The notes under the pieces: generated by a model
The model's database searches: none
The model's input: only the letters and a program-made list of their open reading frames with translations
What the model was told of the DNA's origin: nothing
Shown: positions 14,175-60,543 of the stretch, piece after piece
Layout of the letters: each line of letters opens with the position of its first letter
Position numbering within the stretch: the first letter of the stretch is position 1
Origin: Selaginella moellendorffii
Taxonomy: Eukaryota; Plantae; Lycopodiophyta
Length of the DNA stretch: 64,000 nt
Reading direction: 5' to 3'
NCBI RefSeq assembly: GCF_000143415.4
Contig: NW_003314373.1
Location: forward strand, 186,001-250,000
Translations under genes and position numbers: made by a program

Positions 14175-14264
14175 CGCCGCAGGAGCTCCCCTCTCTTCCG
14201 CCCGCGCTGGAGCCCTAGCCTAGCGCGCGCCACTGCTCCTCCCGCCCATCGCTAAGATTTCGAA

Positions 14265-17159
14265 TTGTCAGTGCCACCAAATCTTGCCCGTCCATTTCCC
14301 GTACACCATCGGAGCCGTCGAATTTATGCTGACGTGTACTCATGTAAGTGGCGACACGTCATGACAATGCCACGTCACGTTGATGATTTAGGGTTTATGG
14401 CCTCCTCTATTAGGCGGGCAACCACGAAGTGGTTGTCCCCGGTGCTGGAATGCGGCGGCGTCGATGCGATCCGCGAGGCCGTGGATCTGCTAGAGCAATC
14501 TGGCGCCGCCGGCGGCAGTGGAGATCTAGAGCAGCTCATTCGCCGCTGCGCGGGCGCCAAGGCGCTGGAGGAAGGCCGGAGGATCCACCGGTGGATGGAT
14601 TCAGGTACGCTGGACAGGCCTAGATTTCTCTCCAATCTCCTTGTGGACATGTATGGCAAATGCGGCAGCTTGGTGGAAGCTAAGCGCGTGTTTGATGCCA
14701 TGCAGCACAAGAATGTCTTCTCTTGGACGATGCTCATGGCTGGATTTGTGCAGAGCGGGCGTGGAGTGGAGGCGATCCAGCTCTTCCACCTGATGTGCCA
14801 AGAAGGGGAGCTCCCTGACCGAGTAGCGCTGCTCAAGTTCATCGATTCGTGTGGAGCCGCCAGGGCACTCTCGCAAGGAAGAGGTATTCACTCGCTACTC
14901 TCAGATCACACGGAGTTTGCGACGGACGTGATGATCAACAATAGCTTGATCAGCATGTATGGGAAGTTCCAGGAGCTAGAAGAGGCGAAGCTCGTCTTCG
15001 ATGCAATGAGAAGGCGCGACATCGTCTCCTGGAACGCCATGATCGCGGCATACGCACAGAATGGGTATAACAGGCAGGCTGTGGAGATCTTCGACGAGCT
15101 GGAGAGACAGGGAGGGGTGATGCCGGATAGAGTGACTTTCATCAGCACGCTGGATGCTTGTGCTGGGCTTGACGAGGAGGAAGGCTTGGCTAGAGGCAGG
15201 GACGTCCACTCCAAGATCAACGAGTTCCGGCTGGATGTAGATGGATCTCTCGCGACAACTCTCGTCAACATGTATGGGAGGTGTGGAAGTTTTGCCGAGG
15301 CCAAGGCCATCTTTGACAAGATGAAGAGGAGGGACTTGATATGCTGGAACTCCATGCTGAGCATCTACGTCAACTGTGGCCTCGCGAGATCGGCCATCCA
15401 GCTCTTCCAGGAGATGGATCAGTGCGGCGTGCTTCCGGCCAACATGACGTTCGTCGCTGCTCTAGACGCTTGCTCCAGCTTGGAAGCTCTCAAGCTGGGG
15501 AGAGAGATCCACTCGGCTGCTGCTTCGTGCGGCATGGATTCGGACTTGGTCACCGCCAACGCCATCATCAACATGTATGGCAAGTGTGGAAGCATCGGGG
15601 AGGCCTTTGCCATGTTTACGAGGATGCCGGAGAAGAACGTTATCAGCTGGAGCACGATGATCGCGGCCTTTTGCCAGAACGAGCTTGCGGACGAGGCCCT
15701 CCTCTTCTTCAAGCTCATGCAACAGGAAGGGATGGAGCTGGACAGGATAACTTACGTCAGTGTTCTAGACGCCTACACCAGCGTGGGAGCTCTGGAGCTC
15801 GGCAAAGCTCTTCACGTCAGGATCGTCTACGCGGGGCTGGACACTTCCATCGTTGTTGGCAACACACTCGTCAACATGTATGGCAAGTGTGGAAGCCCCG
15901 ACGATGCCAGGGACGTGTTTGACAGCATGGTGGAGAAGAATGTGGTCTCCTGGAACGCGATGCTAGCAGCTTACGGCCAGAACGGAAGATCGAGAGAAGC
16001 TCTGGCCTTGTTCGACAGCATGGACGTGAAGCCGGACAGGATCACATTTATAAGCGTGCTGGACGCCTGTGCCAGTGCTGCAGCAGGGGACCGAGGGAAG
16101 CAAATCCACGCTACGGTGAACTCCACGGCTCTGGGACTGGACGCTGGCATCCAGAACGCGCTCGTTCACATGTATGGCAAGTGCGGCAACTTGGCAGAAG
16201 CTCGGCGGATCTTCGACTACATGGACTCCAAGAGCGTCGTCTCGTGGACGTCGATGATGACCAGCTACGCCCAGAACGGCCTCGTCAAGGAATCGCTCCG
16301 GCTAGCGCTGCAAATGAAGCTGGAAGGCATGAGGCCGAACGACATCACCTTCGTCACCATCCTCTACTGTTGCAGCCACTCTGGGAAGTTCAAGGACGCC
16401 GTGAGCCACTTCGTGGAGATGAGGCAGGACTTCGGCATCACTCCCAGGGAGGCACACTTTGGATGCTTGATCGACATGCTTGGGCGGTCCGGGAAGCTCG
16501 AAGAGGCCGAGGAGCTGATACAAGCCATGCCGATTCCAGCCGACGCTGTGCTCTGGACATCGCTGCTCTGCGCCTGTGTGACGCACAAGGACGAAGATCG
16601 AGCTGCCCGAGCGGCGGAGGAGGCGTTCCAGCGAGAGCCCAAGTGTGCCGCGGCCTACATCATGCTCTCCAACCTCTACGCGGCGCTCAAGAAGTGGGAC
16701 GAGGCTGCCAAGGTGAGGAAGAGGATGGAGCAAGCCGGGGTGAGGAAGCAGGCTGGGCGGAGCTGGATCGAGATCGACAAACAGGTGCACGAGTTCGTGG
16801 CCGGGGACTCGATCCATCCGGACAAGTCTCGCATCTTCAAGACGCTGCAGAGGCTGATGTCGGAGATGAGGATCAAGGGGTACGAGCCGGATCGAAAGGT
16901 GGTGATCCACAGCATGGAAGAGGAGGAGAAGGACGAGGTGCTGTTCTATCACAGCGAGAAGCTGGCGGTGGCGTTTGGGATTGCCAGCACGCCACCCAGG
17001 ACGCCGCTGTGCATCGTCGAGAACTTGCGAGTGTGCTCCGACTGCCACTCGGCAATCAAGTTCATTAGCGGCGTCGAGGGAAGAAGGATCACGGTCCGGG
17101 ACAGCAACCGGTTTCACCACTTCGATCGTGGCGAGTGCTCTTGTGGGGACTACTGGTAA
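14265..17159 (+). CDS. PLS-class PPR protein with E and DYW deaminase domains (C-to-U editing factor)
   Basis: Intronless 964-aa ORF (real ATG probably ~14398). Repeated MYGKCG...VF..M..VVSW motifs, HSEKLA, CSDCH, GECSCGDYW. Confidence 0.95.
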   Translation: MSVPPNLARPFPVHHRSRRIYADVYSCKWRHVMTMPRHVDDLGFMASSIRRATTKWLSPVLECGGVDAIREAVDLLEQSGAAGGSGDLEQLIRRCAGAKALEEGRRIHRWMDSGTLDRPRFLSNLLVDMYGKCGSLVEAKRVFDAMQHKNVFSWTMLMAGFVQSGRGVEAIQLFHLMCQEGELPDRVALLKFIDSCGAARALSQGRGIHSLLSDHTEFATDVMINNSLISMYGKFQELEEAKLVFDAMRRRDIVSWNAMIAAYAQNGYNRQAVEIFDELERQGGVMPDRVTFISTLDACAGLDEEEGLARGRDVHSKINEFRLDVDGSLATTLVNMYGRCGSFAEAKAIFDKMKRRDLICWNSMLSIYVNCGLARSAIQLFQEMDQCGVLPANMTFVAALDACSSLEALKLGREIHSAAASCGMDSDLVTANAIINMYGKCGSIGEAFAMFTRMPEKNVISWSTMIAAFCQNELADEALLFFKLMQQEGMELDRITYVSVLDAYTSVGALELGKALHVRIVYAGLDTSIVVGNTLVNMYGKCGSPDDARDVFDSMVEKNVVSWNAMLAAYGQNGRSREALALFDSMDVKPDRITFISVLDACASAAAGDRGKQIHATVNSTALGLDAGIQNALVHMYGKCGNLAEARRIFDYMDSKSVVSWTSMMTSYAQNGLVKESLRLALQMKLEGMRPNDITFVTILYCCSHSGKFKDAVSHFVEMRQDFGITPREAHFGCLIDMLGRSGKLEEAEELIQAMPIPADAVLWTSLLCACVTHKDEDRAARAAEEAFQREPKCAAAYIMLSNLYAALKKWDEAAKVRKRMEQAGVRKQAGRSWIEIDKQVHEFVAGDSIHPDKSRIFKTLQRLMSEMRIKGYEPDRKVVIHSMEEEEKDEVLFYHSEKLAVAFGIASTPPRTPLCIVENLRVCSDCHSAIKFISGVEGRRITVRDSNRFHHFDRGECSCGDYW

Positions 17160-17291
17160 CATTAAGATGGTGTAGAATATGCCAGGAATAGTTTAGCACA
17201 GTAAATCAGTTTTATCAATTAAAATATTCATTACAGTTAAGCAACAATTTAAAAAATATTACCATAACTAGATGATCACTACGTAGAGATT

Positions 17292-19490
17292 ATGCTCGTT
17301 CGGCTCAAATGCCGGATCCGCGCGCTCCGATGGGTTTCCACTAGCAGTGCCAGATTCTTCCCTCTCACTGAGAAAGAGGAGCAGCAGATCGATCGGCTCG
17401 AGCGCCTGGATCTCCGCGACGCCGTGCAGCTCCTCGAGGATCGATCCGTGTCACCCAGCGCCGAGGTGCTGGCCTGGTACCTCCGCCGCTGTGGGAGCGA
17501 GGCCGCCATCGCCGAGGGCAAGCGCATCCACTACCACATCGTGCTGTGTGGATTCAAGAGCAGCAGGTACCTTTGCAATCTCCTGGTAGAGATGTATGGC
17601 AAGTGTGGCAGTCTCCAGGCGGCCAAGAGCATCTTCCACATCACACCCAGAAGGAACGTTTTCTCGTGGACTATCATGGTAGCAGCATTTGCCCACAATG
17701 GGCATTACATGGATGCGCTCAAGCTCCTGGAGATCATGGATCTCGAGGGGATTTCGCCCAATTCCATCACCTTCATCGAGCTCCTGGGGGCCGTGGCGGC
17801 ACTGTCGTGGCTGGATCGAGGTAGAGCTCTTCACAGACGCATCGCTTCTTGTGGATTTCTTGCAGATATCTTCGTGGCGAACTGCCTGATCAACATGTAT
17901 GCCAAATGCAGGAGCTTGGCGGACGCTTGCAGCGTGTTTGAGAGCCTCACGAGCAGGAGCGTGATCGCCTGGACCGCCCTCGTCGCTGCCTACGCTCTCA
18001 ATGGATTCTTCCGCGACGCGCTCAAGGTGTTCTTGCTCATGACGCTCGACGGCGTGGAGCCGACCGAGGTAACTTTCGTCACGGTGGTGGATGTGTGTGC
18101 CGATATCGCCGTGTTTGGCATTGGCAGGGAAGTTCACGGGGTGATCGACGCCAGGAGCGAGGCCAACGTTTGCGTGGGGAACGCTCTCATCAACATGTAT
18201 GGGAAGTGTGCCAGTCCCGACGACGCGAGGAAAGTTTTCGACGCGATGGAGAGGAAGGATATCATCACCTGGAACTCGATGATCGCGGTCTACGGACAGA
18301 ACGGCTATGGCTTCCAGGCTCTAGAGATCTACAAACGGATGCAAGAGAGCCGAGTTCTTCCGGATGGCGTGACTTTCACCAGTGCCTTGGACGCCTGCTG
18401 CTGCAACTCGTCACTTCTAGCTCGAGGACAAGCGATCCACGATCAAGCCATCGCCGCGGGACGTGAGAGAGAGGCAACCGTGAACTCGGCACTGATCAAC
18501 ATGTATGGGAAGTGTGGGAGGCTGGACCTGGCGAGGAAAGTTTTCGACGAGACTGAATCCACCAACGCAGTCTCGTGGAACACGATGATCATGGTCTACG
18601 CACAGAACAGCCATCTCAGGGAAGCTCTGGAGCTCTTCTCGGAGATGACCATCCTCGGGATCACACCCGACGACATCACTTTCATCGGGGTGCTCTTCGC
18701 TTGCAGCCATGCCGGGCTCGTCAAGGATAGCTGCAAGCTCTACAGCTCCATGATCGGCGACTACGGCTTCAAGCCCACGTCTCTCCAGTGCGGCTGTCTC
18801 ATCGATCTCCTGGGACGAGCCGGGTGGCTGGACGAAGCCGAGGAGTTCATCAACTCCATGCCATACCATCCGGATCACACCATCTGGACGATACTCCTGG
18901 GAGCTTGCATCACTCACGCGGACGTGGAGCGAGCAGCTCGAGCGGCGGACCGGATCATGGCGCTGAGACCCACGGACTCGGGATCCTATGTCGCTCTCTC
19001 CAACTTGTACGCTCTCGCGGAGAGGTGGGACGACATGGCCAGGATGAGAAAGCTCATGGACCAGCGTGGAGTCTTCAAGATGGCCGGGAAGAGCTCCATC
19101 GAGATTGGTGGAGTGCTGCACGAGTTCATCGCTGGGGACACCTCGCACCCGCGGAAGCGTGAGATTTACGAGGAGCTGCGGAGGATCGAGGGGGTGATCC
19201 GCGAGAGAGGCTACGTCCCGGATATCAAGGCTGTGTTGCACAACGCGGCAAGAGAGGCCAAGGAGAAGATGTGCTGCTTCCACAGCGAGAGGCTGGCGAT
19301 TGCGTTTGGGATGATCTCGAGCCCGGGTGGGACTGAGCTCCGGATCATGAAGAACTTGCGTGTCTGCCCCGACTGTCACTCGGCTTCCAAGATCATCTCC
19401 AAGTTTTCGGGCAGGAAAATCATCGTCAGGGACGCAAATCGCTTCCACGAGTTCCGGAATGGATCCTGCTCGTGTGAAGATTATTGGTAA
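17292..19490 (+). CDS. PLS-class PPR-DYW protein
   Basis: 732-aa intronless ORF with an organellar-targeting-like N-terminus, HSERLA, KNLRVCPDCH, GSCSCEDYW. Confidence 0.95.
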   Translation: MLVRLKCRIRALRWVSTSSARFFPLTEKEEQQIDRLERLDLRDAVQLLEDRSVSPSAEVLAWYLRRCGSEAAIAEGKRIHYHIVLCGFKSSRYLCNLLVEMYGKCGSLQAAKSIFHITPRRNVFSWTIMVAAFAHNGHYMDALKLLEIMDLEGISPNSITFIELLGAVAALSWLDRGRALHRRIASCGFLADIFVANCLINMYAKCRSLADACSVFESLTSRSVIAWTALVAAYALNGFFRDALKVFLLMTLDGVEPTEVTFVTVVDVCADIAVFGIGREVHGVIDARSEANVCVGNALINMYGKCASPDDARKVFDAMERKDIITWNSMIAVYGQNGYGFQALEIYKRMQESRVLPDGVTFTSALDACCCNSSLLARGQAIHDQAIAAGREREATVNSALINMYGKCGRLDLARKVFDETESTNAVSWNTMIMVYAQNSHLREALELFSEMTILGITPDDITFIGVLFACSHAGLVKDSCKLYSSMIGDYGFKPTSLQCGCLIDLLGRAGWLDEAEEFINSMPYHPDHTIWTILLGACITHADVERAARAADRIMALRPTDSGSYVALSNLYALAERWDDMARMRKLMDQRGVFKMAGKSSIEIGGVLHEFIAGDTSHPRKREIYEELRRIEGVIRERGYVPDIKAVLHNAAREAKEKMCCFHSERLAIAFGMISSPGGTELRIMKNLRVCPDCHSASKIISKFSGRKIIVRDANRFHEFRNGSCSCEDYW

Positions 19491-32284: not shown

Positions 32285-35200
32285 TCAGGCAGCCACGAAC
32301 GTATTACACAACGACACGTGTGTGGCGGCCCGCTCCTCCGCCTCCATCGCCCTCGAGATCCTGGCCGCACGTTCCACGTCACCGTGCGTGTTGCAAGCGC
32401 CAACCAGCGCCGACCACGTGGCCTCGTCGGGCTTGAACGGCATGCTCACGATCAAGTCCTCGGCGTCCGCCAGCCTCCCAGCTCGGCCCAAAAGATCCAC
32501 CACGCAGCAGTAGTGATCGGCCCCAGCTTCCAGATCATAGTCTCCGCGCATGCTCGCGAAGTAGTCCCACCCCCGGCGGAAGAACCCGGCGTGGTTGCAA
32601 GCGAAGAGCACGGCCAGGAACGCCACCTCGTCGGGCTCCATCCCCTGGAGCTGCATCTCCTGGAAGAGATCGATGGCTTCCAGGCTCGACCCGTGCGAGG
32701 CATACGCCACCATCATCGACGTCCACGACACCACGTCGCGCTTGTCCAGGCGATCGAACACCCGCCGGGCCTCGCCAACTTTGCCGGATCTCGTCAGCGT
32801 GTTGAGCAGCGCGGTGCCGACGAGGGAGTCCGTCTCCATGCCGGTGGAGAGGATGGCGTGCTGCACGGCGCTGGCCTCGCTCGGGGAGAAGCTGCCGCCG
32901 ACTGCTAGAAGTCCCAGGAAAGTTGCTCGATCCGGCCTCACCGATGCGGCTTGCATCGCCTGGAACAGCTCCAGCACCGCCTCCTTGTCGCCTCGCCTCG
33001 AGTAAGCTGCGATCATGGCGTTCCAAGCCGGAGATCCCCGTGACTTCTCCTCCATGGCGTCGAACACCCGCCTCGCCACCTCCACACTGCCACATTTGCC
33101 GTGCATGGCGATGAGCGACGACTGGATGGCCGAGTCCGAGCACCACCCCAGGTCCGAAAGCCGGCTGTGGATCTTCGCCGCCATCTTCACGTCCTCGATG
33201 CCCCTGCTTGCCTCCATCACCGCGACGTAGACGATCTTGTCAGCACGGCAGCCCTCCTGTTCCATCTTCTGGAACACCTCCACGGCTTCTCTCGCAAAAC
33301 CGTTCGTCGAGTATCCCCGTATCATGGACGTCCAAGTGACCGCGTTTTTGCTCGGCATCACGTCGAACACCTGCTTGGCTTCCACCACGTCGCCGCACCT
33401 CCCATACATGGTAACCAGCGCAGTGCCAACGTAGACGTCGATGTGGATCCGGTTGGCGAGGATCAAACCGTGCAGAGTTTTGCCATGGACGAGGCCGTCA
33501 CTCCCCATGGCCGAGCAGGCGTCGAGAGCACTCACGTAGCTCACTCGGTCTTGCCTGGGACCGCAAGCCTCTTGCATCTCGAAGAAGAGGCCCAAGGCTT
33601 CCTTCGGCTGATCGTTGTGGAGATGAGCTCTAATGATGGAATTCCACGAGACCACGTCCCTGTCTTGCTCTTGCATGCTGTGGAACACGGCTTTGGCTTC
33701 CTCCAGACACCCGCACATCCCGTATAAGTCGAGCAGAGTGTTGTTCACCACCGTGTCTATCTCAAACTTGCCTTCCACTATCCTTGCGTGGATTCGCTTG
33801 CCTTCTTCGAGGTTCATGGCGCTCGAGCACGCGTCAAGAACGCTCGCGAATATCACCTTGTCGGGAACCACGTCGATCTGCTTGTAGAGCTCGATGGCTT
33901 CGTTTCCGAAACCGTTCTGTCCGTATGCAGTGATCATCCTGGCCCAGGTGAGAGCAACTCTCCTACTCATTCCATCGAACAATCTCCTGGCCTCGATCAC
34001 CTCTCCAAACTTCCCATACATTTTGATCAGTCCTGTCTGTAACGCTACGTCGGACATGAAGCCAATACTCTGGATTCGTCTGTGAATCTCTCTGCCTTTT
34101 TTCAGGCCTCTGTCGGGGCACGACAATCCGCAGCAACCGTCGAGAGCGCTGATCAGCGTGTACTTGTCAGGAGGAATCCCCACCAGAGCCATCTCGTGAA
34201 ACACCTCCACTGCCTCCTCTCCAAAACCATTCCTGGCGTAAGTTGCAATCATCGTGTTCCACGACACGGAGTCCCTGACCGTCATCCCGTCGAAAACGTT
34301 TCTGGCATCAGCTGGACTCGAGCATTTGCTGTACATGTTGATGAGTGCATTCCCCAGGACAAGATCGGAGCCGAAACCATGCCTTGTGACACTCGCATGA
34401 ACGTCCCGGCCATCTGACAGAGCTTTCAGGCTCACGCAAGCGTCGAGAGCATATAAAAAGCTGACCTTGTCCGGTTCAGTCATCTCGTAAAACAACCGAA
34501 GAGCTTCTGTCGGACACCCGTTCTGGTTGTAAGCTGCCATTATGACATTCCACGAGACGACATTCTTCTCCGGTATGGTATCGAAGGCGAGTTTGGCATC
34601 CGCCAAGCTGCTGCTCTTCCCAAACATGTTGACAAGCGAGGCAGCCACTGCGACGTCGGAGCCGAGTCCACTCGAAACAACTCGAGCATAAGCCAGCCTC
34701 GACTCGGCCAGGCACCCCAGGCCCGTGCAAGCTTCGACCAGACTCAGGAATGTGATCCTGTCCGCTTTCATGCCTTCCAGATCCATCGCCTTCATCAGTC
34801 GGAGAGCATCCTTGGCCAGTCCATTCCGAGCATAGGCTCCTATCACAGTGTTCCAGGACACGACGGTCTTCTCAGGCAAGCCTTCGAAAACCATCCTGGC
34901 CGTCTGGCAGTCCCCGCACCTCCCATACATGCCCACAAGCGCGTTTCCCACGTTGAGATTTGCATGCCACCCGCTCTCCACAATCCTCGAGTGTGCCTGC
35001 TTGGCTCTGTTCAAGTCGAACAGCTTCGAACAGGCATCCACGACTGCCAAGTACGTCACCTTCTCGGCCTTAAACCCCTCCAAGTCCATCTCCTGGACGA
35101 GCCTGAGTACTGCTCTCCCGTGGCCACCCTTGCTGTAGGCCGTAAGCAAGATGGTCCACGAGTAGATGTTCTTTGCCTGGATGGCCTGGAAGGCAGCACG

Positions 35201-35509
35201 GGCACTCTCCATATCCCCGCATTTCCCATACATGTCCACGAGCAGATTACCGAGAAACGCATGACTGCCGTATCCACACTTGAGAATCTGCTCGTGGACA
35301 AGCCTGCCATCTTCTAGTGACCTCTCCTCTGCGCACACACGCAGAAGCCCAACGAATCCTTCCGGATCTCCCTGAAGACCAACCTGAACTAGCTCGCTCT
35401 CCGTCACCGACGACGATCCTTTCTGCTGTGGACAACTCCTGCTCATCCATCTCTTGAGTCTGACGAGCACCACCACATTCCTTCTTGGTCGAGAAGGAGC
35501 CCTAGCCAT
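32285..35509 (-). CDS. Long PLS-class PPR protein ending within the E domain (no DYW)
   Basis: 1074-aa intronless ORF of PLS repeats. E1 motif MPFKPDEATWSALVGAC, stop after THVSLCNTFVAA. Confidence 0.93.
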   Translation of the reverse strand: MARAPSRPRRNVVVLVRLKRWMSRSCPQQKGSSSVTESELVQVGLQGDPEGFVGLLRVCAEERSLEDGRLVHEQILKCGYGSHAFLGNLLVDMYGKCGDMESARAAFQAIQAKNIYSWTILLTAYSKGGHGRAVLRLVQEMDLEGFKAEKVTYLAVVDACSKLFDLNRAKQAHSRIVESGWHANLNVGNALVGMYGRCGDCQTARMVFEGLPEKTVVSWNTVIGAYARNGLAKDALRLMKAMDLEGMKADRITFLSLVEACTGLGCLAESRLAYARVVSSGLGSDVAVAASLVNMFGKSSSLADAKLAFDTIPEKNVVSWNVIMAAYNQNGCPTEALRLFYEMTEPDKVSFLYALDACVSLKALSDGRDVHASVTRHGFGSDLVLGNALINMYSKCSSPADARNVFDGMTVRDSVSWNTMIATYARNGFGEEAVEVFHEMALVGIPPDKYTLISALDGCCGLSCPDRGLKKGREIHRRIQSIGFMSDVALQTGLIKMYGKFGEVIEARRLFDGMSRRVALTWARMITAYGQNGFGNEAIELYKQIDVVPDKVIFASVLDACSSAMNLEEGKRIHARIVEGKFEIDTVVNNTLLDLYGMCGCLEEAKAVFHSMQEQDRDVVSWNSIIRAHLHNDQPKEALGLFFEMQEACGPRQDRVSYVSALDACSAMGSDGLVHGKTLHGLILANRIHIDVYVGTALVTMYGRCGDVVEAKQVFDVMPSKNAVTWTSMIRGYSTNGFAREAVEVFQKMEQEGCRADKIVYVAVMEASRGIEDVKMAAKIHSRLSDLGWCSDSAIQSSLIAMHGKCGSVEVARRVFDAMEEKSRGSPAWNAMIAAYSRRGDKEAVLELFQAMQAASVRPDRATFLGLLAVGGSFSPSEASAVQHAILSTGMETDSLVGTALLNTLTRSGKVGEARRVFDRLDKRDVVSWTSMMVAYASHGSSLEAIDLFQEMQLQGMEPDEVAFLAVLFACNHAGFFRRGWDYFASMRGDYDLEAGADHYCCVVDLLGRAGRLADAEDLIVSMPFKPDEATWSALVGACNTHGDVERAARISRAMEAEERAATHVSLCNTFVAA

Positions 35510-35545
35510 CCTTCCTCATCTCTGCCCTATACCCGGCCTGGGCAT

Positions 35546-48400: not shown

Positions 48401-49257
48401 ATTTTCCGAGTGACTTGGAACACATTTTACCCAATTATTCTGTCACTTACGTTTCCCCGAATGTAACGTGACGACAGTGCATTCTGCAGGATTCCCAGGC
48501 TTGTATAGGAGCTTTTATAGTCCAGCAAAGGGAGAGAGAGAGAGGCATGACTTTCATATCCTGTTACCCAACCAAGCCGACTGTGAGTTTTAGGGGAACA
48601 CACTCCCAACATTGTGGTCCATAGCTCCTATACCGATCTAAGGCATATAATATAATAGTTATAGAAAAATGAGATTAACCACATTCATTAAGAAATTAGA
48701 TAAATTTTAGATAAAAAAGAATATCCTATAATATAATTTTTTAAAAGCTTTGCTTAATAGTATTGGATCTTTAAAATATTCTTTGATCAATTAATCTAGT
48801 AAACAATTATTATATGAAAGGTGTAAAAAAACTCTTGACATGAATAAATATTTTGACAAAATAAAAGATAATAACATATTGTTTCATAAAGTAATGATGA
48901 TTTTGTATGGTTATCTCTCATATATTATGATGATAGAATTTAAGATAACCATATCTATTTTATAGGAGAATAGACTTTTATATAATGCACATAAGTACAA
49001 TTGCCTTTATAGCAAAAGTTTTGGATTAAGTTTTGGTGGCCAAAAATATTATATAATTCTTATCAAAAATTATTTTGATTATTTATCCAAGAGTTATATG
49101 TATGAAGAGTGCTCTTTAAAGATCATATTGTAATCATGAGATAAAATACAATTATTTATCTTACTATTACATTTGTTGAAATAAATTGAAACCTTAAAGC
49201 TACTTATATATCTAAAGTATGTGTTTCTCAATTTATGGTGAGAATGAACTTTTGATA

Positions 49258-49722
49258 AACTAGATTTATGTGACAATCCTTTTTGAAATTTACTCATAGA
49301 TGGTAAACATGGTTTATATTAGTGATAACTAAAGAATATTTATGTTAAAAGAAAAATTTAAAAAGAGTAGGTATATTTCTTACTTTATAGGTTTTATAAA
49401 GGAAACTAAAAATTATATAAAAGTTAGTCACAAAATATATTTAATTTAAATGAATCTAGATATCCAATATAAAATAGTAATATTATTCTACAACTAGATT
49501 CATATGACAATCCTTTTGAAATTTACTCATGGATGGTAAACATGGTTTATATAATAATTACTAAAGAATATTTATGTTAACAGAAAAATTTAAAAGGAGT
49601 AAGTATATTTGTTACTTTATAAGTTTTCTAAAGCAAACTAAAAATTATATAAGAGTTAGTTACAAAACTAAATTTAATTTATAAATATTTAGATATCTAA
49701 TATAAATTAGTAGTATTATTCT
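49258..49722. repeat. Diverged ~235-bp tandem duplication inside a very AT-rich block (48630-49800)
   Basis: AACTAGATT.AT.TGACAATCCTTTT(T)GAAATTTACTCAT.GATGGTAAACATGGTTTATAT... occurs at ~49258 and ~49492, and the two units are colinear to their ends. Confidence 0.85.
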
Positions 49723-50649
49723 TTAATAAAGAATCCTCATAGAATCTAAAAAAAAATCACTTTCATAAATATGCATATAAAAAATATTTATAAAAATGGT
49801 AGCTTAAGTACTGTGAGGTCCAAGTGTACAACTACGATGCTATATACTAATATTAACGTAGTAGGATTTTGGTAACTGTTGGATTGATTTTAATCCGGAC
49901 CACTCACTTTTGTATATAAGCTAGAGTTTTTGCGCTAATTGATATACACATTGCCTTTTCCATATTCCAAGCACTCACATTGGTAGAAGTGAGAGGCACC
50001 TTTCATTGTCCCTGAGGAGTGCTTGGATTTGGGATTTTAATTTAGATTTAGCTTTTTCCATTTCCATTTTTTGATTTTTCCTTTCAGATATTTAGTTTTT
50101 CTATTGTTTAAATCTCCCTTTCCTCCTAATGTTTTCTCATTTTCCTTCTTTTGCTTTTTTTCCTTTCTATTCATCTTCATGGCAAAGTAGTAGTCTTTGT
50201 GAGACACAAAATCCCTAGGCCCCAAAGTGGAGCCGGAAAGGGTGCCACATGGTAGTGGCCGAAGCGAAAGCCAAACGAGCGTAACACGTTTGGACTAAAA
50301 ACTCCGACTTGGAAGGTCAAGTGGGAGTGGAACTCCCAACAAAGTGCTTGAGGAGCGAGCACGAGGCAACCAACAAGCAAGGCTCCAAAAAAGGACCCAA
50401 AAAGGACCAACACATGACACGTGGAAATGTCTGAGATGGAGTCCGAGATGGACCCGAAATGGAATCCGAGACGGAGTCCAAGATGGACCTGAAGTGGAGT
50501 CCGAAATGGAGTCTGAGATGGACCCGAGATGGACCCAAGATAGAGTCCGAGATGGAGTGTAAGGAACCAACTCGCCGAGGTGTCGTAGGCTAAGGGAACC
50601 CCGAAAGCATGACCAAAATGACAAAGAGTTCATCGGATGGGACCAAGTC

Positions 50650-50920
50650 AAAGATCGAGTCCAAGACCGACTCTAGGACCGAGTTCGAGATAGAGTCCGG
50701 AATCGAGTCCAAGACCGACTCGGGGACCGAGTTCGAGTCCGAGTTCGAGACCGAGTTCGAGACGGAGTCCGAGATCCGAAATCGGGTCTGAGACCGAGTC
50801 CGAAGTCGAGTCCGAGGTTGGGCCCGAGATCGGGTCCGAGATCGAGTCCGCGATCGAGTCCGAGACCGAATCCGAAGTCGGATCCGAAATCGGATCCGAG
50901 ATCGAGCCAGAGACTAAGTC
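50650..50920 (+). repeat. GAGTCC/GAGACC/GAGATC hexamer array within the LTRs (also 57035-57290, 50435-50557, 58076-58160)
   Basis: Direct reading; the LTRs differ by one 12-nt unit here. Confidence 0.9.
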
Positions 50921-51765
50921 CAAATACTAATACGGGTCAAGGGGTGAAAGCCCAAAGCGTGCGTCCCCCAGGGGGGGGGGGCTGCAGGGGGTTCCAAAAG
51001 TATAGTAGGGATAGTGAGGTCCAGGAACCAGTTTAGAAGGGACTCTCCAGTGGGGCTCCCAAACTGACTTGAGGTTGGGACTGGGACCGAGGGGCCTTGG
51101 GTGGGAGTGAGCATGGACTTGGTTGGTGCCGGAGGGGCCATCCAAGGAAGTGCTCAAGAGCAGCTCCCACTCCCGAAAGGGAAACCGATTGCGGTGCTCC
51201 CGGCTCATGTGGAGTGGTGCCCCACTTGAGTACCATGTGGCTCATTGGTCCTCGCCCTTCCTAGGGGCTTGGGCCTTCCTTCGGGATGGAAGTGGGGGGC
51301 GAGAGGTACCCATGCCGGGCCGTTAGGCCACGGTGTTTCGCCCCGGCGTCCCGAAGCAAGTGTTGCACTCAAGACTTGGGATTTAGAGGGTCCCATGATC
51401 AAGTCTTGTGGTACCAAGGGATGTTAGGAACCTGGAAGCTTGGTGTGCTTGGCTGCTTGTGCTTGCGGGGAGTGTAGCCGAACCTTAAGTCCAGTCTAAC
51501 CCGGGGAGGGGGATTGGGAGTGATTTGGGGAATCCGTGGAAGGATGGCTAACGCTCCATTGCTCGTGCAGTGAGTAGCTGAAACCAAGTAGGAGCTGGTA
51601 CCATAGGCGAGAACCTTGGCAAGGGAACTTAGCAAAAGCCAAGGCAGTGTTGGACGGATAGACGAGGTAAGCTGGCAAATTGGAAAGGAAAAATTTGTGG
51701 CTTACAATTTGGTATCGGAGCCTTTATCTCAGTTCTAGCGAAGGATAGAGGCGGATTGCTGGGAG

Positions 51766-54700
51766 ATGGCAAGGGCAGGGCGTAAGCGAACCCAGGCGGA
51801 GACGGAACCTCCGCCGGAGCTGGAGCCTCTGGTTGAACAAGAGGCTATGGATGAGGAATCCTTGCATGAGGGGGACTCCAGTGAGGAAACTTCCAAACAG
51901 GAGTCCGGTGGCGAGGTTCGGTCGTCCAAGGCTCGATTGGACGTGCTAGAAGGACAGTTGGCACAGACCAATGCCCTGCTGGAGACTCTCGTACGCGAGT
52001 TAAAGCGTGACGAGAAGCGGAAGAAAAAGCGAAAGACTGCGGATGCTGGCAGCGCAGAAGGTGCGGACCCTTCGGCAGGGACTGAGGCAAAACCAGACAA
52101 GGTCGAACAGACCGAAGTGGAATCAGTCCCTCAGGCAGTTCCCAAGTACAAACCAAAGCCCCCACCGGTGTTCAAGGGAGTGAACGACTATAAGGTTGTG
52201 GAGGATTGGTTTTACGATATGGAGGACTACTTCCGAGCATTGCGGTTACCGAGCTCGGAGAAGGTCCCATGTGCAAAACCATACTTGGCAGATAATGCCA
52301 AGTCTTGGTGGAGAACAACGGAGGCCAACGAAGGACCGGTGGCCACCTGGGACATGATGAAGGCGAGGATCCGCGCGACATACGTTCCTCCGAATGCCAC
52401 TCTGCATCTGAGAGATGAGTTGAGTAGGCTGAAGCAAACTGGAACCATCCAGGAATATGTGAATGGGTTCATGGCAAAGAGGATACTTGTCACGGACATG
52501 GGGGATATGGATGCGTTCCATGCCTTTATATCAGGTTTGCAAACCTGGGCTCGCGGTGAGGTGATGCGCTGGAACCCGACCAACTACAAGGAAGCGTTGG
52601 ATGCGGCCATCAAGGTGCATTTCAACGATAACCTGCGAAAGGGGAACACGACGGGGTCGGGATCCACGTTTCACAAAGGGGCCAAACCGAGGGGAACATA
52701 TAGCAAGGGGAAATTCAAGAAGAGTTTCTCTAAGAATGAGTCCTCGGGGTTCCGGAAAGGCAAAGCCGGTGGCCAGCGAGCGAGTACGTGGGGAAGTCAA
52801 GCGAAAAAAGACAAACCCACGGATAAGAAGGTCAAGTCGTATAGCAGCGTGGGCAACAACGTATGCTATAACTGCGGCGAAGCGGGACACTTCTCGAGGG
52901 AATGTCCCTACCCGAAGAAGGCCAGAGCCAATATGGCCATCAAGTCGGGTGAAGTCCAAACTGAGGTATGTGATCCAGTCCCTAACTCAAAGTTACTCAT
53001 TACACGAGCAACTTTGGTAGAGAGTCGTTCGCGACATCTACTAGCCCTCCGAGGGAAGCTCGGAGGTAGCTTTGTTAAGATCCTTATTGACACGGGTGCT
53101 TCGGATAATTTTGTGGCTGCAGACATAGTCCGGCAAGCCGGACTAACGGTGCAGCGGCTAGGCGAACCAAGGACTATAGAGTTTGTTCAAGGTAGCCAAA
53201 GCACCGATGAGGTACTTCGACAAGCGAGAGTCGAAGTGGGGACATGGAAAGTGGACATGGATTTCACCGTCTTGGACATGGCGGGATTTGACGTGATCTT
53301 CGGAATGGATTGGTTTAATCGGTTCGTGGTAGCCCTACATGGACAAGGTAGGAACCTTGTGGTATTGGCGAATGCCCAAGGAAGAAGATCTAGGGTGGAA
53401 GCCCAGGATCTAAAGGTAGGGCAAAGCAAGGCCAAAGAGTCATGCTTAAACCTGGTGTCCACGAGAGGACAACTCACTAAAGGAACTAAGGCAGCCTTTT
53501 TGTGCTTACTCTCGGTGAAGAGTGACAAAAAGACAAGAACGGAAGAAGTACCTTTAGTGATCCAGCAGGTGCTGGACCAATTCCAGGATACGATGCCGGA
53601 GGAGCTACCGGCGGGGTTGCCCCCCGCACGACCGATAGAACATAAGATTGAGCTGGTCGAGGGTGCTGAGGCGGTGGTTCGTCCACCCTATCGATTGAAC
53701 GAAAAAGAACTCAAGGAGCTCAAGAGCCAACTAGAGGAGTTGGTGGACAAAGGGTATGTTAGGTTGAGCAAGTCGCCGTATGGGGCGCCGGTGCTATTTG
53801 TGAAAAAGAAAGATGGATCTATGCGCATGTGCATAGACTACCGGTTGCTCAACAAGTATACCAAGAAGAACAAGTACCCTTTGCCAAGGATCGAGGACCT
53901 GTTCGATAGGTTGGGAAAGGCAAAATACTTCTCGAGGATTGACCTAAGGTCAGGATACTACCAGATCAGGGTAGCTGAGGAAGATGTCGAGAAGACAACC
54001 TGTCGAACGAGGTATGGGAGCTTTGAGTTTTTGGTGATGCCCTTTGGGCTGTGCAATGCGCCGGCAACGTTTTCGGCGTTGATGAACCACATCTTTGTAC
54101 CCTATCTGGATCGCTTCGTGGTCGTCTATATTGACGACATCCTGATCTATAGCGAGACGCTAGAGGAGCATGCCGAACACTTGGCGAAGGTGTTTGAGAA
54201 ACTAAGGGAACACAAACTGTATGCTAAAGAGAGCAAATGTGACTTTGCTCAACAAGAGGTAAAGTTTCTCGGGCATGTGGTGGGCCAGGACGGGCTCAAG
54301 GTGGACCCGGAGAAGGTCCAAGCGATCCAGGAATGGGAACGACCATCGAATGTACATGAGTTGAGGGCGTTCCTGGGGCTATGCAACTACTATCGAAAGT
54401 TTATCAGACACTATTCGAGAGTAGCCCTGCCCTTAACGGACCAAACAGGAAAAGGGAAGATGGTATGGACAACGGAATGCGAGGCAGCATTCGTCCACCT
54501 CAAAGGGAAGTTGAGGAAGGCTTCGGTGTTGGCCTTACCAGACTTTGGTAAAGACTTTGAGGTAGACACGGATGCTTCGGACTTTGCGTTGGGCGCGGTT
54601 TTGAAGCAAGACAACCATCCAGTAGCGTTCTTCTCGAAGAAGCTGGACAAGGCTCAACGGAAGTGGCCTGCCCACGAGAAGGAATTGTTTGCGGTGGTCA

Positions 54701-56537
54701 AGGCGCTCAAGGAGTGGCGACACTACCTTGGGAGACACTTCAAGGTTTACACGGACAATGTGGCAACGAAACACTTCTTGTCACAGCCCGACCTAAGGGG
54801 AAAACAAGGTCGGTGGGCCAATGCCTTGGCCGAGTTTGATTGCGAGATCCTGTACAAGCCTGGGAAGAGCAACATCCTGGCAGATGCGCTCAGTCGAAAA
54901 GCGAGCTTGAAGTTGGCGATATCTAGCGCGACAGCAACCTTTTGGGACGATGTGCGGACCGCATACGAGAGTGATGGTCTAGCACGAGAAGTGTTGCTGA
55001 GGAATCTGGAGGCGCGGGAAGCTCACCAGAGAGGTGAGCTGCCAACGGAAGAGAAAACGGGCTATGCGGAACGCAACGGACTCATATATTACAAGTAAAC
55101 GAGGGTGTATGTTCCAGAAGGGGAACTAAGGAAGGTAGCCTTGGAAGAGTGTCATGACGGACCTCTTGCGGGACACGGCGGAGTGCCCAAGACGATGGGC
55201 TTACTCAAAAGGAAGTATCACTGGCCAGATATGGCTAAGGATGTCCAAGACTATGTAAGACATGTCCAACATGTCAGCAGGTCAAAGCCGTGACGAAGGC
55301 TAGTGGGGGCTTGTTGCAAAGCATCCCCATTCCAGATCGTCCGTGGAAATGTCTCACGATGGACTTCATCACGGGACTACCCCCAAGCGAGGGGTTCGAT
55401 GCGATATTTGTGGTGGTGGACCGATTTTCAAAGATGGCACATTTCATACCCACCACAACGGATGTGGATGCGGAAGGTGTGGCGAAGCTGTTCTTCGAAC
55501 AAGTGGTTCGAGTGCGGGGAAGGCCGGAAGAGATTATCTCAGATCGAGATAAGATCTTCACCAGTAGGTTCTGGAGGACACTCCTAGAACAGTATCGCAC
55601 CAAGTTGAAATTCAGCACGGCCTATCACCCACAGACAGGTAATGGGTATTGAGTCAAGATTGATGGCACTAACACTTCTTGACAGACGGACAAACGGAAA
55701 GGGTGAATAGACAGCTGGAGGATTATTTGCGATGCTATGTCTCGGGAGACCAGACCGACTGGGTAAGTCATTTGGGACTTGCGGAAATGTGTTATAACAA
55801 CTCACCACATTCGAGCATCGGGGTGAGTCCATGGGAAGTCATCAATGGGCGAGCTATTGAAGGTCCTGTGGAACTCGGCGTGGCCGAGTATCATGGAGAG
55901 TTACCCGCAGTGGAGGCATTCACAGCGGAAAGACTCAACATTTGGAATCTAGTGAGGGATTCCTTGGAACGGGCTCAACAAAGGCAAACTAAGTACGCGA
56001 ACCAAAAGCGTCGAGATGTGGAGTTCCAAGCTGGGGAGAAGGTGTGGCTGAACACCAAGAACCTCAGGCTACCAAGTGGGATCAGCCGGAAGTTGACCCA
56101 AAGGTAAAAATGCATGTATTCCTGTAAATGAATTGATCTTGAGTTCCTTAAGCAGGTTCGCGGGGCCTTACGAGATTGAGGCTCGAATCGGTAAAGTGGC
56201 TTACCGTCTCCGACTTCCTCGAGAGATGGGGAAGATGCACCCCGTGTTCCACGTGAACTTACTCAAGCCGTATTTTGAGGATCCGCTTCGCAAGGACCAA
56301 GTAAGACCTTTACCTGAGGTTATCCAAGGGGAGGAGGAATACGAAGTCGAGGCCATCCTCAATGCGCGCAAGAGCAAGCGACAAGGACGCGAGGTGAGAG
56401 AGTTCCATGTGAAGTGGAAAGGATTTCCACACTGCGAAGCAACATGGGAACCGGAGGAGAACCTAGCGAACGTGCGAGATCTAGTGGAGGAATTTCTGCA
56501 TGGCAGAACTCTATGTACTTATGCAAAGTTCAATTAA
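51766..56537 (+). CDS. Gag-Pol polyprotein (Gag, CCHC knuckle, protease, RT, RNase H, integrase, chromodomain), interrupted by predicted introns; this copy also has a stop and a frameshift
   Basis: [62 protein letters not shown]|GQTER, R|FAGPY, chromodomain YEVEAIL...[19 protein letters not shown] at 55096-55098; 1-nt deletion ~55258. Confidence 0.95.
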
Positions 56538-58080
56538 AAGTATCAATTTGAGAAGTTGAGCAATGGCATATGTTGGGACCCGAAGGCGCGCCGAAGGTGA
56601 GCTAATTAGCATGGGTTAGCTAGGTCAACCAGGCGTAGGGAGCTACGCCCGACTCCCTGCGGGGATGTCGAATCCGTAGACGTATTCTACGGAGGTTGGG
56701 TTTGAGTCCCAACCCCCTAGTAAAGCAAGGCTGGGTTCAAGTCCCGACCCCATACTAGGGCGTGGTGAGGGGTGGAGTATAGGGACACCTATATTCCGTT
56801 GTCATGAGCTCTTGGCCGGGGAGGCTAACTTAGGCACACCGCTAAGTGGGGGGATGCCCCCGGAGACATGGTCAACAAGTCGTAGGATAAAAAAGAGACG
56901 TTCGATGTGGGCATCGAACTTCTTCTATGGGTGGTGGAGTTGTAAGGAACCAACTCGCCGAGGTGTCGTAGGCTAAGGGAACCCCGAAAGCATGACCAAA
57001 ATGACAAAGAGTTCATCGGATGGGACCAAGTCAAAGATCGAGTCCAAGACCGACTCTAGGACCGAGTTCGAGATAGAGTCCGGAATCGAGTCCAAGACCG
57101 ACTCGGGGACCGAGTTCGAGTCCGAGTTCGAGACGGAGTCCGAGATCCGAAATCGGGTCTGAGACCGAGTCCGAAGTCGAGTCCGAGGTCGGGCCCGAGA
57201 TCGGGTCCGAGATCGAGTCCGCGATCGAGTCCGAGACCGAATCCGAAGTCGGATCCGAAATCGGATCCGAGATCGAGCCAGAGACTAAGTCCAAATACTA
57301 ATACGGGTCAAGGGGTGAAAGCCCAAAGCGTGCGTCCCCCAGGGGGGGGGGCTGCAGGGGGTTCCAAAAGTATAGTAGGGATAGTGAGGTCCAGGAACCA
57401 GTTTAGAAGGGACTCTCCAGTGGGGCTCCCAAACTGACTTGAGGTTGGGACTGGGACCGAGGGGCCTTGGGTGGGAGTGAGCATGGACTTGGTTGGTGCC
57501 GGAGGGGCCATCCAAGGAAGTGCTCAAGAGCAGCTCCCACTCCCGAAAGGGAAACCGATTGCGGTGCTCCCGGCTCATGTGGAGTGGTGCCCCACTTGAG
57601 TACCATGCGGCTCATTGGTCCTCGCCCTTCCTAGGGGCTTGGGCCTTCCTTCGGGATGGAAGTGGGGGGCGAGAGGTACCCATGCCGGGCCGTTAGGCCA
57701 CGGTGTTTCGCCCCGGCGTCCCGAAGCAAGTGTTGCACTCAAGACTTGGGATTTAGAGGGTCCCATGATCAAGTCTTGTGGTACCAAGGGATGTTAGGAA
57801 CCTGGAAGCTTGGTGTGCTTGGCTGCTTGTGCTTGCGGGGAGTGTAGCCGAACCTTAAGTCCAGTCTAACCCGGGGAGGGGGATTGGGAGTGATTTGGGA
57901 ATCCGTGGAAGGATGGCTAACGCTCCATTGCTCGTGCAGTGAGTAGCTGAAACCAAGTAGGAGCTGGTACCATAGGCGAGAACCTTGGCAAGGGAACTTA
58001 GCAAAAGCCAAGGCAATGTTGGACGGATAGACGAGGTAAGCTGGCAAATTGGAAAGGAAAAATTTGTGGCTTACATGGAG

Positions 58081-58116
<36 letters not shown>

Positions 58117-60543
58117 TCCGAGTCCGAGTCCGAAATCGGGACCGAGACCGAATCCGAGTCCAAATATTAATACAGGCAGTTGGGTGAAAACCCAAAGCAA
58201 TCCCCCCGGGGGGGGGGGGGGGGGGGGTGGCAGGGGTTTCCAAAAAGCCTAATAAGGAAAATGTGGGGGTTTGGAGCCTAGTGGAGCCAGTTTGGCCAGG
58301 AAAGGCCAGTTTGGCCTAAAAAGGCCATGCCCAGTGTTGGGTGATGAATTGACTACTAAGAAGTCCAAGACTAGAGTGAATACGGACCGACAAACGGGGT
58401 AGCTTGGCGAAGTGTTCAAAAGCTGGCTCTAGTTCCCCCGGAAGATTGACTGGCTGATGCTCTCAGTCCAAGTGTGGGTGGCACTACCTACTTGGATACC
58501 TCGCGTGGCTCAACGGAACCTTGCTCTAAGCCCATGGCTAGAGCACCCAAAGGCGGAAGGCGGGGAGAGTACCCATGAGGCCCGCGTAGGGCCACGGTGT
58601 TCCGAAATGTTGTCCCAAAGGCCTAGATTGTGGAAAGGAAGAGGAGTAGCCCTCTGGTGTGGTGACCAAGGATACAGTCAGGTGGTGAGGAAGTCCCAAA
58701 GGACCGTGGGACTTAGTGGTCGGGCCTGTGGGCCTCAATCCAGTGGTAGTGTTGGCGAACATGGCTATGGGTAGAAAGGGACTTGGTGGGGAATGGAAAA
58801 AGGATATTGGGGAAGGCTCTTCCCCATGTCTGTGGGCATCCTATGGATGCTAAGGAGTGGATCTAGGATGATCACTCATGGATGGATGGCCCAGTCTTTG
58901 ATAGACGGGACCGTGATGTAGGTGGTGTCAAACCACCAGGTGACCAAGGTGAATGGGCATAGCCTTAGCATAACGGGCTGATGTGTCGGTGGTACCTTGA
59001 GGTGTTGGTTGTGGGATCAGACACGTGGAGCACTTAAACCAAGTGCAATGGTTGAGTGGCATGGATGCCATTCTTGGGGCTAGCAAGTCCCTAAGTCCAA
59101 AATGGGACTTACGGAGGTTGTGAGTGAGACTCCTCCAAGTGGTCGGAGGTGTGGTTAAGTGACTAAACTAAAATGGAAAATTTAGTCGCTTACAGTCTTC
59201 TCCTCTAACTCTAGAGCAGCAATTAGTGCAATTGCTTGATGCTATGCGATTGCAATTGAACAATCAAACTCAATTGATGGCGGCATTCACGGCATGTGAT
59301 ATAGCTCCTCCTGCTCTTGGTGCCAATCCTCGCGTTTGGTTAGAGTTCTTTCATGGGAATCCTAGGAATGATGTGTACTATTGGTTCGATCACTTCACAG
59401 TGATTGCCACCTATCATTCTTGGGATGATGCTTGACGTTTACGTGAGTTTCCCACATGGCACTGCAATGGTACAATGGTTTGAGTGTAGCCACTCATGGG
59501 GACTAGAGTGTTCTCTTCAAATGCATATTTGGACATGTTAACGATTGTGATGATACCTTCCAACAATTGTATCATCTTTGTTAAGAGCCATCTAAGTCGC
59601 TGATACAAGTTTCCAAAACCTTTTATTTTGTGTAGAGCTAAATTTGTCAAAACGGATCAAGTTAGGAATGTTATGGCCAACACTTTGTCAAGATTTTGTC
59701 GGACTTGTGTATGCACTTGCTCCAACCACCCGTGACAATGCTTTTCGTTTGGCACAATGTTATAAGACATCACTTCTTCAACTTTTTGCTACACGTCCTT
59801 CCACTCCACTTCTTGTGGGCGATGGTCCTATTCTAATGGAAGTTGATGCTGCTGCTACTCAAGTCCAAGGACAAGGGCGAGGTTGTGGTCATGGCCGAGC
59901 ATAGCGCAAATCTTCATTTCTGGCACACTCCCTCACCAGCCCTGCCTATGGTGTTGCTCACGCACTGCGCAGAAGTGAGTTGATCCTGAAAGGAGCCTGG
60001 ATTGTATGCCCGACTACCATTCTACTTGCCCTTGTTATCCTTGTGAGCACCTCCTCTAGGAGCTTACAAACGCACAGACTCTCACGGGAATGCCCACACA
60101 ACCACATCTGAGCAGAGCAGCAATGGAGCCGTGCATGGCATAACACCTATCGCCACACCCTCTTTCCTTCCCGGCCACACATGCATCTTACCCATTGGCC
60201 GCCACAACATTAAGTTGATATTCCCACTAACCATGGCCACCAGCCCTGGCCCGGGCCTGGGGTGGCCTCCCCTTCCCAAGAACCATGGCTTCCAAAGCTG
60301 CCCCAAGCCTAGGATCGGACGGCTGGATCCTATTGGGCCCTTCGTTCTTATTATTATAGATAAATAGATAGATATTTACACTTGTGATGTTGTGTGTGGA
60401 CACGCACATCCAGCTGACGCACCACATTGTAATCTTACACGTTTAAAACACGAGCGGCCAGCTGGAAATACAGAGCTGCATGAGTAAATGTGCGCCTGGA
60501 TCAAGTTTCGCATTACTACGATCTATAGCAAGAAGAGTGTAGT

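Follow-up and report, generated by a model that had tools for sequence, protein, structure and literature searches.

Transcripts of a Ty3/gypsy retrotransposon in the window (the whole 64,000-nt stretch of Selaginella moellendorffii DNA analyzed here) almost certainly undergo splicing of a 66-nt leader intron, which removes the end of the 5′ LTR together with the tRNA primer-binding site (PBS; Table 1). Introns are normally lost within one round of retrotransposition. Without a PBS, no tRNA-primed minus-strand synthesis starts (PMC12786077). We favor, with a probability of roughly 0.55, a reading in which the choice between RNA with and RNA without the leader intron divides the transcripts between a pool of messengers that cannot be primed and one of unspliced genomes, leader splicing being coupled to that of the integrase introns and a hairpin at the LTR end acting as the switch; as the spliced RNA would be unprimable, the frame-breaking integrase introns could persist.

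Table 1. Features of the element and of the older solo LTR surrounding it (positions within the window).
Feature	Position	Strand	Remarks
gypsy element	50558-58075	+	7518 nt
5′ LTR (TGTAAG..CTTACA)	50558-51706	+	1149 nt; tandem 12-mer array and poly-G tract; TSD TGGAG just upstream
Predicted U5-terminal hairpin	51667-51706	+	GCUUAC of the att end (branch-like) paired with donor GUAAGC
Leader intron, 66 nt, GT..AG	51667-51732	+	removes last 40 nt of LTR, 3-nt spacer and PBS; joint in X1, X2
PBS, tRNA-Met type, 13 nt	51710-51722	+	TGGTATCGGAGCC; PBS of this type described for SM1-Galahad (PMC3350952)
gag-pro-RT-RNaseH ORF, up to premature stop of window copy	51766-55098	+	stop codon 55096-55098
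Intron 2, 157 nt, after zinc knuckle	52966-53122	+	joint in X1, X3; one X2 contig begins at acceptor
Intron 3, 47 nt, frame-shifting	55639-55685	+	splits integrase HPQT-DGQTE; joint in X1, X2 and one raw X16 read
Intron 4, 52 nt, frame-shifting	56104-56155	+	splits integrase C-terminal R-FAGPY; joint in X1, X2
Last coding exon	56156-56537	+	Tf2-like SH3 and chromodomain
AT-rich patch	56514-56538	+	contains TGTA and AATTAAA; possible poly(A) signal, internal, before PPT
3′ LTR	56941-58075	+	donor and hairpin as in 5′ LTR at 58036-58075; then TSD TGGAG, no PBS
Older solo LTR, related family	50198-59194		TSD GTCTT; young element inserted in its tandem 12-mer array
Last 40 nt of solo LTR	59155-59194	+	same predicted hairpin; donor offset without GT

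The element is a Ty3/gypsy chromovirus, having the order Gag-PR-RT-RH-IN, a chromodomain, LTRs and a target-site duplication (TSD). Pfam domains follow one another as Gag, zinc knuckle, protease, RT and RNase H and then, in separate frames, integrase core, SH3 and chromodomain. Between the LTRs, which share the terminal inverted repeat TGTAAG..CTTACA, there are 3 substitutions and 14 gap columns. Despite only 3 LTR substitutions, the premature stop and a frameshift (∼55100-55260) disrupt the beginning of integrase in the window copy. Expression comes from a different member of the family, most RNA contigs being 95-99% alike. By description, not by sequence, the element matches SM1-Galahad, a Galadriel-like chromovirus of S. 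moellendorffii of 7.5 kb, with LTRs of >1 kb containing poly-G and with a 13-nt Met PBS; hundreds of copies, none of them intact, were found, with ORFs of 3885, 316, and 309 bp, the long one ending in integrase and the last of the two short ones containing a group I chromodomain (PMC3350952). The corresponding spans in the window are 3887 (including the stop), 318, and 309 nt, where the first runs to a stop inside intron 3 and across the window copy's own lesions, and the poly-G tracts of the window LTRs measure 11 and 10, compared with 11-25 in the paper. There, the pieces are treated as separate ORFs, whereas in the present analysis they are exons; neither "intron" nor "splic" occurs in the text of PMC3350952, and "Galahad" gave no match in a search of its supplement. 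Placement in the Galadriel clade follows the description in that paper; the closest single-copy matches are unlabelled or angiosperm chromodomain elements (57-63%). The trait of the Tcn1 clade, self-priming without a tRNA PBS (PMC6317226, the text supplements of which contain no match for Selaginella), was not found, the window element having a Met-type PBS. The ORF of the sister family, SM2-Galahad, is uninterrupted (PMC3350952).

The first-pass annotation had predicted the leader intron from its motifs, and all of their coordinates proved correct: the donor GAG/GTAAGC, with the first base of the intron, G, at 51667 and 40 nt of LTR left from there; the sequence CTTAC (51701-51705); the acceptor CCTTTATCTCAG, ending at 51732; and another TAG (51736-51738). 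The gag ATG (51766) follows 33 nt after the acceptor. On a crude 9-position consensus, the donor scored 7/9, making it the best of the 80 GTs in the LTR and the sole one at this value; since 23 of the 457 GTs of the whole element reach 7/9, the sequence by itself is suggestive only. The branch-like CTTAC, 28 nt before the end of the acceptor, doubles as the LTR terminal inverted (att) repeat, so that its presence lends the intron no independent support. A pyrimidine tract and an AG directly follow the PBS. Of the upstream ATGs, eight of which lie between 51028 and 51765, none is taken out by the intron.

Eight of the 23 listed runs were compared against positions 50930-56940. Three of these (X1 and X2 from one study, X3 from another) are contig sets, keeping dominant paths only, whose RNA nature is a guess. 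X1 contigs contain four GT..AG joints, corresponding exactly to the four introns of Table 1. The leader joint was read as 51664/51731, skipping 66 nt, and matches the intron once the cut is shifted by +2 to GT..AG; only 2 letters are shared at its ends. The predicted intron was recovered in this exact form in one contig each of X1 and X2, that is, in two of the three probable-RNA sets, while the alternative acceptor at 51738 was used in neither contig. Because the spliced contigs begin in the LTR, at 51555 (X1) and 51090 (X2), RNA reaches 110 and ∼575 nt, respectively, upstream of 51667, as the prediction presupposed for the transcription start; the donor is thus part of the LTR that is transcribed, and it precedes the PBS. 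The X2 contig carrying the joint is 1341 nt long and runs from 51090 to 52495; both integrase joints were also found in X2. A sequence that is present in DNA and cut from RNA at GT..AG has the hallmarks of a U2-type spliceosomal intron, with the reservation that the RNA runs are assigned by guess and the spliced leader comes from one study only.

In X3, the leader was unspliced (contig 51031-51837) and intron 3 was kept (contig 55500-56108), but intron 2 was joined, with a 28-nt side. Six alleles, picked for their rarity in DNA, are common to X2 and X3; in X11 they account for 0-8% of the depth and in X15, where covered, for 0-28%. These shared alleles make it unlikely that X3 is bulk DNA and, given that X3 keeps leader and intron 3, indicate that the expressed copy carries the introns and that both RNA forms exist. 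The raw RNA-Seq runs X16-X18, of each of which ∼12% was sampled, yielded no reads over 51533-52135 and are uninformative on the leader. X11 and X15 are DNA-like by behavior, their kind not being on record and X11 standing under another organism label; they gave 1739 and 587 heterogeneous contigs, respectively, over all 30 bins. Joints as shallow as depth 2-3.4 do appear for these two runs, among them non-canonical ones of low depth, but none of the four GT..AG joints. Contigs of X15 span introns 2 and 4 in unspliced form, the one over intron 4 being 55927-56470. Since contigs drop rare variants, the absence of intron-less copies from X11 and X15 is unproven.

For the last 40 nt of the LTR, which are also the first 40 nt of the intron, a hairpin of -13.1 kcal/mol is predicted (z -4.17; none of 200 shuffles as stable), with a pair probability of 0.98-1.0 in four contexts, the longest of 871 nt. 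Among 622 GC-matched 40-mers, 16 were as stable, and the segment for folding was picked post hoc, after the hairpin had been noticed. The wider 241-nt leader (z -0.51) and the whole 66-nt intron (z -1.49) showed no significant fold. At 27/40 identity to the LTR end of the element, the older solo LTR retains the hairpin (z -4.94; 0/200 shuffles): of the 11 pairs common to both, 7 are the same, 2 changed on one side and 2 on both sides, which, coming from two sequences, is thin covariation. The first-pass annotation had cited G/GTTAAGT in this solo LTR as support for the donor; this motif scores 4/9, and the exact 40-nt offset reads TTAAGT, without GT. The solo LTR thus speaks for conservation of the hairpin but not of the donor, and the hairpin may be selected for another reason. 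Because any sequence complementary to CTTAC reads GTAAG, a hairpin of this kind generates a donor and hides it at the same time; its att end presumably mimics the pairing of U1 snRNA with the donor. Both the hairpin and intron 2 had been overlooked in the earlier annotation.

All three downstream introns are GT..AG. Intron 2 lies after codon 400, and the DTG motif of the protease (53089) is lost with it; one codon past the joint, a stop (53126) ends a Gag of 401 amino acids. Its excision would give a copia-style Gag-only mRNA in a gypsy element. The lengths of introns 3 and 4 exactly equal the frame shifts between the integrase pieces. Relatives are uninterrupted at the HPQ-type motif in 41 of 46 loci and at the R-F/Y-x-GP motif in 42 loci (80 fetched); of the 5 HPQ loci outside this count, L020 and L021 prove on visual inspection to be variants without an interruption, the others being L041, L053, and L076. 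Hundreds of SM1-Galahad copies, none intact, and three ORFs matching the exon sizes suggest that the introns were copied through many transpositions; the splitting of the exons by introns would also explain why no intact SM1-Galahad was found in 2012. A 5-nt direct repeat at the ends of intron 3 (55634-55638 and 55681-55685) might record its mode of gain.

The 80 metagenome loci are distant (44-60% in the best segment); a Gag search gave one distant match, and among viral contigs no relatives were found. A Met PBS was present in 7 of the 80 loci, the best upstream donors scoring 4-7 of 9, and LTR-end hairpins with z < -2.7 were predicted in 2 of 7 distant relatives. One distant gypsy relative (L017:353-440) has GAA/GTAAGC 40 nt before a Met PBS. 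A hairpin predicted at its LTR end (z -3.36) includes this motif; no AG occurs within 45 nt downstream of that PBS.

In the favored reading, pairing of the donor with the att-end CTTAC is predicted to compete with U1, so that some RNA would escape splicing. Splicing of the leader would be coupled to that of the integrase introns on the same molecule; intron 2 would set the ratio of Gag to Gag-Pol, the latter probably being made from RNA that keeps intron 2 and has lost introns 3 and 4. At the level of runs, splicing of leader and intron 3 covaried in all three sets, which could reflect library type; no contig or read spans both the leader and the integrase introns. As to the link between leader and integrase splicing proposed beforehand, both kinds of intron were spliced in the same two runs, X1 and X2. 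In X3, a leader-retaining contig stands beside a spliced gag-pro joint, which suggests that PBS-bearing, partly spliced RNA may exist. Of the proposal that splicing out the PBS safeguards intron retention, the splicing and the loss of the PBS hold, and strict all-or-none coupling does not fit X3. A further-reaching version, which we put forward tentatively and regard as rather less probable than its opposite, makes SM1-Galahad a four-intron gene with the att-end hairpin as a binary switch: once it opened, splicing would delete the PBS and commit the RNA to full splicing, so that no spliced RNA would ever be copied, the donor would have come free as the att complement, and the gate would then have allowed gain of introns in integrase. 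Contigs of X1 and X2, both from a single study, stop at 56484 and 56494 without a recorded loose end. A candidate poly(A) site at 56484-56560, ∼400 nt upstream of the 3′ LTR, would remove the PPT too. Such a site before the PPT is a possible second or alternative safeguard.

The leader intron may be real and nevertheless incidental, because a U5 hairpin complementing the att end automatically spells the donor GTAAG; the integrase introns would then survive by another filter, either internal polyadenylation before the PPT and the 3′ R, or export and packaging of unspliced RNA only. Retention of the hairpin without GT in the old solo LTR, the hairpins of two distant relatives and the termination of the X1 and X2 contigs just ahead of the TGTA/AATTAAA patch are in line with this, as is the separation of BARE pools by RNA ends (PMC3735527). 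We consider this explanation unlikely, given that the assemblies of X1 and of X2 both run through the joint, which is not a rare event, that the pyrimidine tract and AG stand right after the PBS (at position 51726, where the window copy has an A, the entire listed depth of X3, X11 and X15 shows a pyrimidine), and that the hint of a 3′ end comes from contigs of a single study. It is still less probable that the donor serves mainly expression, with U1 suppressing polyadenylation in the 5′ LTR, or splicing clearing structure before the gag ATG and aiding export and translation, and PBS loss as a side effect. Although foamy virus depends for Gag expression on the major splice donor (MSD) in its R region, which also suppresses its 5′ poly(A) signal via U1 (PMC5035957), and U1 acts in EVD termination (PMC5580714), the leader intron clears away none of the upstream ATGs, and the survival of the integrase introns would be left unexplained.

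That the joints stem from a processed DNA retrocopy in one accession, from template switching or from assembly error would be compatible with the guessed RNA nature of X1-X3 and, for intron 3, with the 5-nt repeat at its ends. Four independent GT..AG joints, of which that of the leader shares only 2 letters, are hardly expected from such an artefact; the joints are missing from both DNA-like runs, X3 carries the same rare alleles unspliced, and the intron-3 joint was seen in one raw read of X16, a recorded RNA-Seq run. We therefore regard an artefact as very improbable.

Sorting of RNA by the position of a donor has a precedent in foamy virus, the major splice donor of which lies in the LTR (R), upstream of the PBS, and which makes Pol from spliced mRNA (PMC5035957); judged from these positions, the Pol mRNA would lack U5 and the PBS. 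The donor-before-PBS layout is shared with SM1-Galahad. Foamy virus differs in being a retrovirus, in having a long intron that extends to an acceptor in gag, and in translating Gag from unspliced RNA, and frame-breaking integrase introns are not described in the available text (PMC5035957). In MMTV, the PBS is upstream of the donor and so stays in spliced RNA (PMC13736810). EVADE and BARE1 resemble intron 2 in that protease sequence is removed and a stop follows just after Gag; unlike the window element, they are Ty1/copia, with one facultative intron, and no PBS-removing intron is described in the text available, where an Arabidopsis survey is also said to have found no conserved splicing in gypsy (PMC5580714, PMC3735527). 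Ogre (gypsy/Tat) is likewise a plant gypsy element that requires splicing for full Pol and keeps its intron in the genome, but this one intron lies between gag-pro and RT, and no leader intron over the PBS is described in the available text (PMC6317226). Penelope-like elements also keep introns through retrotransposition, including a 5′ UTR intron at the terminal-repeat boundary, yet they belong to a different retroelement order, without tRNA priming or integrase of this type (PMC8557442).

According to a 2025 review, plant LTR elements are generally intron-free, with the exception of Ogre and EVADE (PMC12786077). The literature search, with subscription papers mostly outside its coverage, retrieved no LTR retrotransposon with a PBS-deleting intron or with introns inside integrase, and the available parts of PMC13148404, PMC2864245, and PMC7197481 mention no PBS-removing intron. 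As far as this search goes, the family is known, and RNA sorting by a PBS-deleting intron is new for LTR retrotransposons. For Penelope-like elements, the significance of the kept introns is stated as unknown, and their retention is posed as an open question (PMC8557442). A high-copy element with obligatory integrase introns and an intron deleting the primer site offers a concrete, testable answer to how retroelements keep introns. Surveys that go by ORFs may wrongly class active families of this kind as decayed.

Some further observations concern other transcripts and parts of the window. Most of the reads of X16-X18 fell on an LTR piece, 51174-51529; they are of the sense strand, have unlike sequence flanking them on both sides, and probably derive from an LTR fragment in another transcript or from a related family. 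A few X16 and X17 reads with the first mate on the + strand (55754-56155 and 56558-56940) likely represent antisense RNA of the 3′ part of the element. Elsewhere, the window has long single-ORF PLS-type PPR genes (14256-19490 and 32285-35515), two of them with DYW domains, as well as F-box/Kelch, fasciclin and GRAS genes; two named proteins of S. moellendorffii fall into one cluster with the GRAS protein. A very AT-rich block (48680-49800) contains a 116-nt repeat in two copies 232 nt apart.
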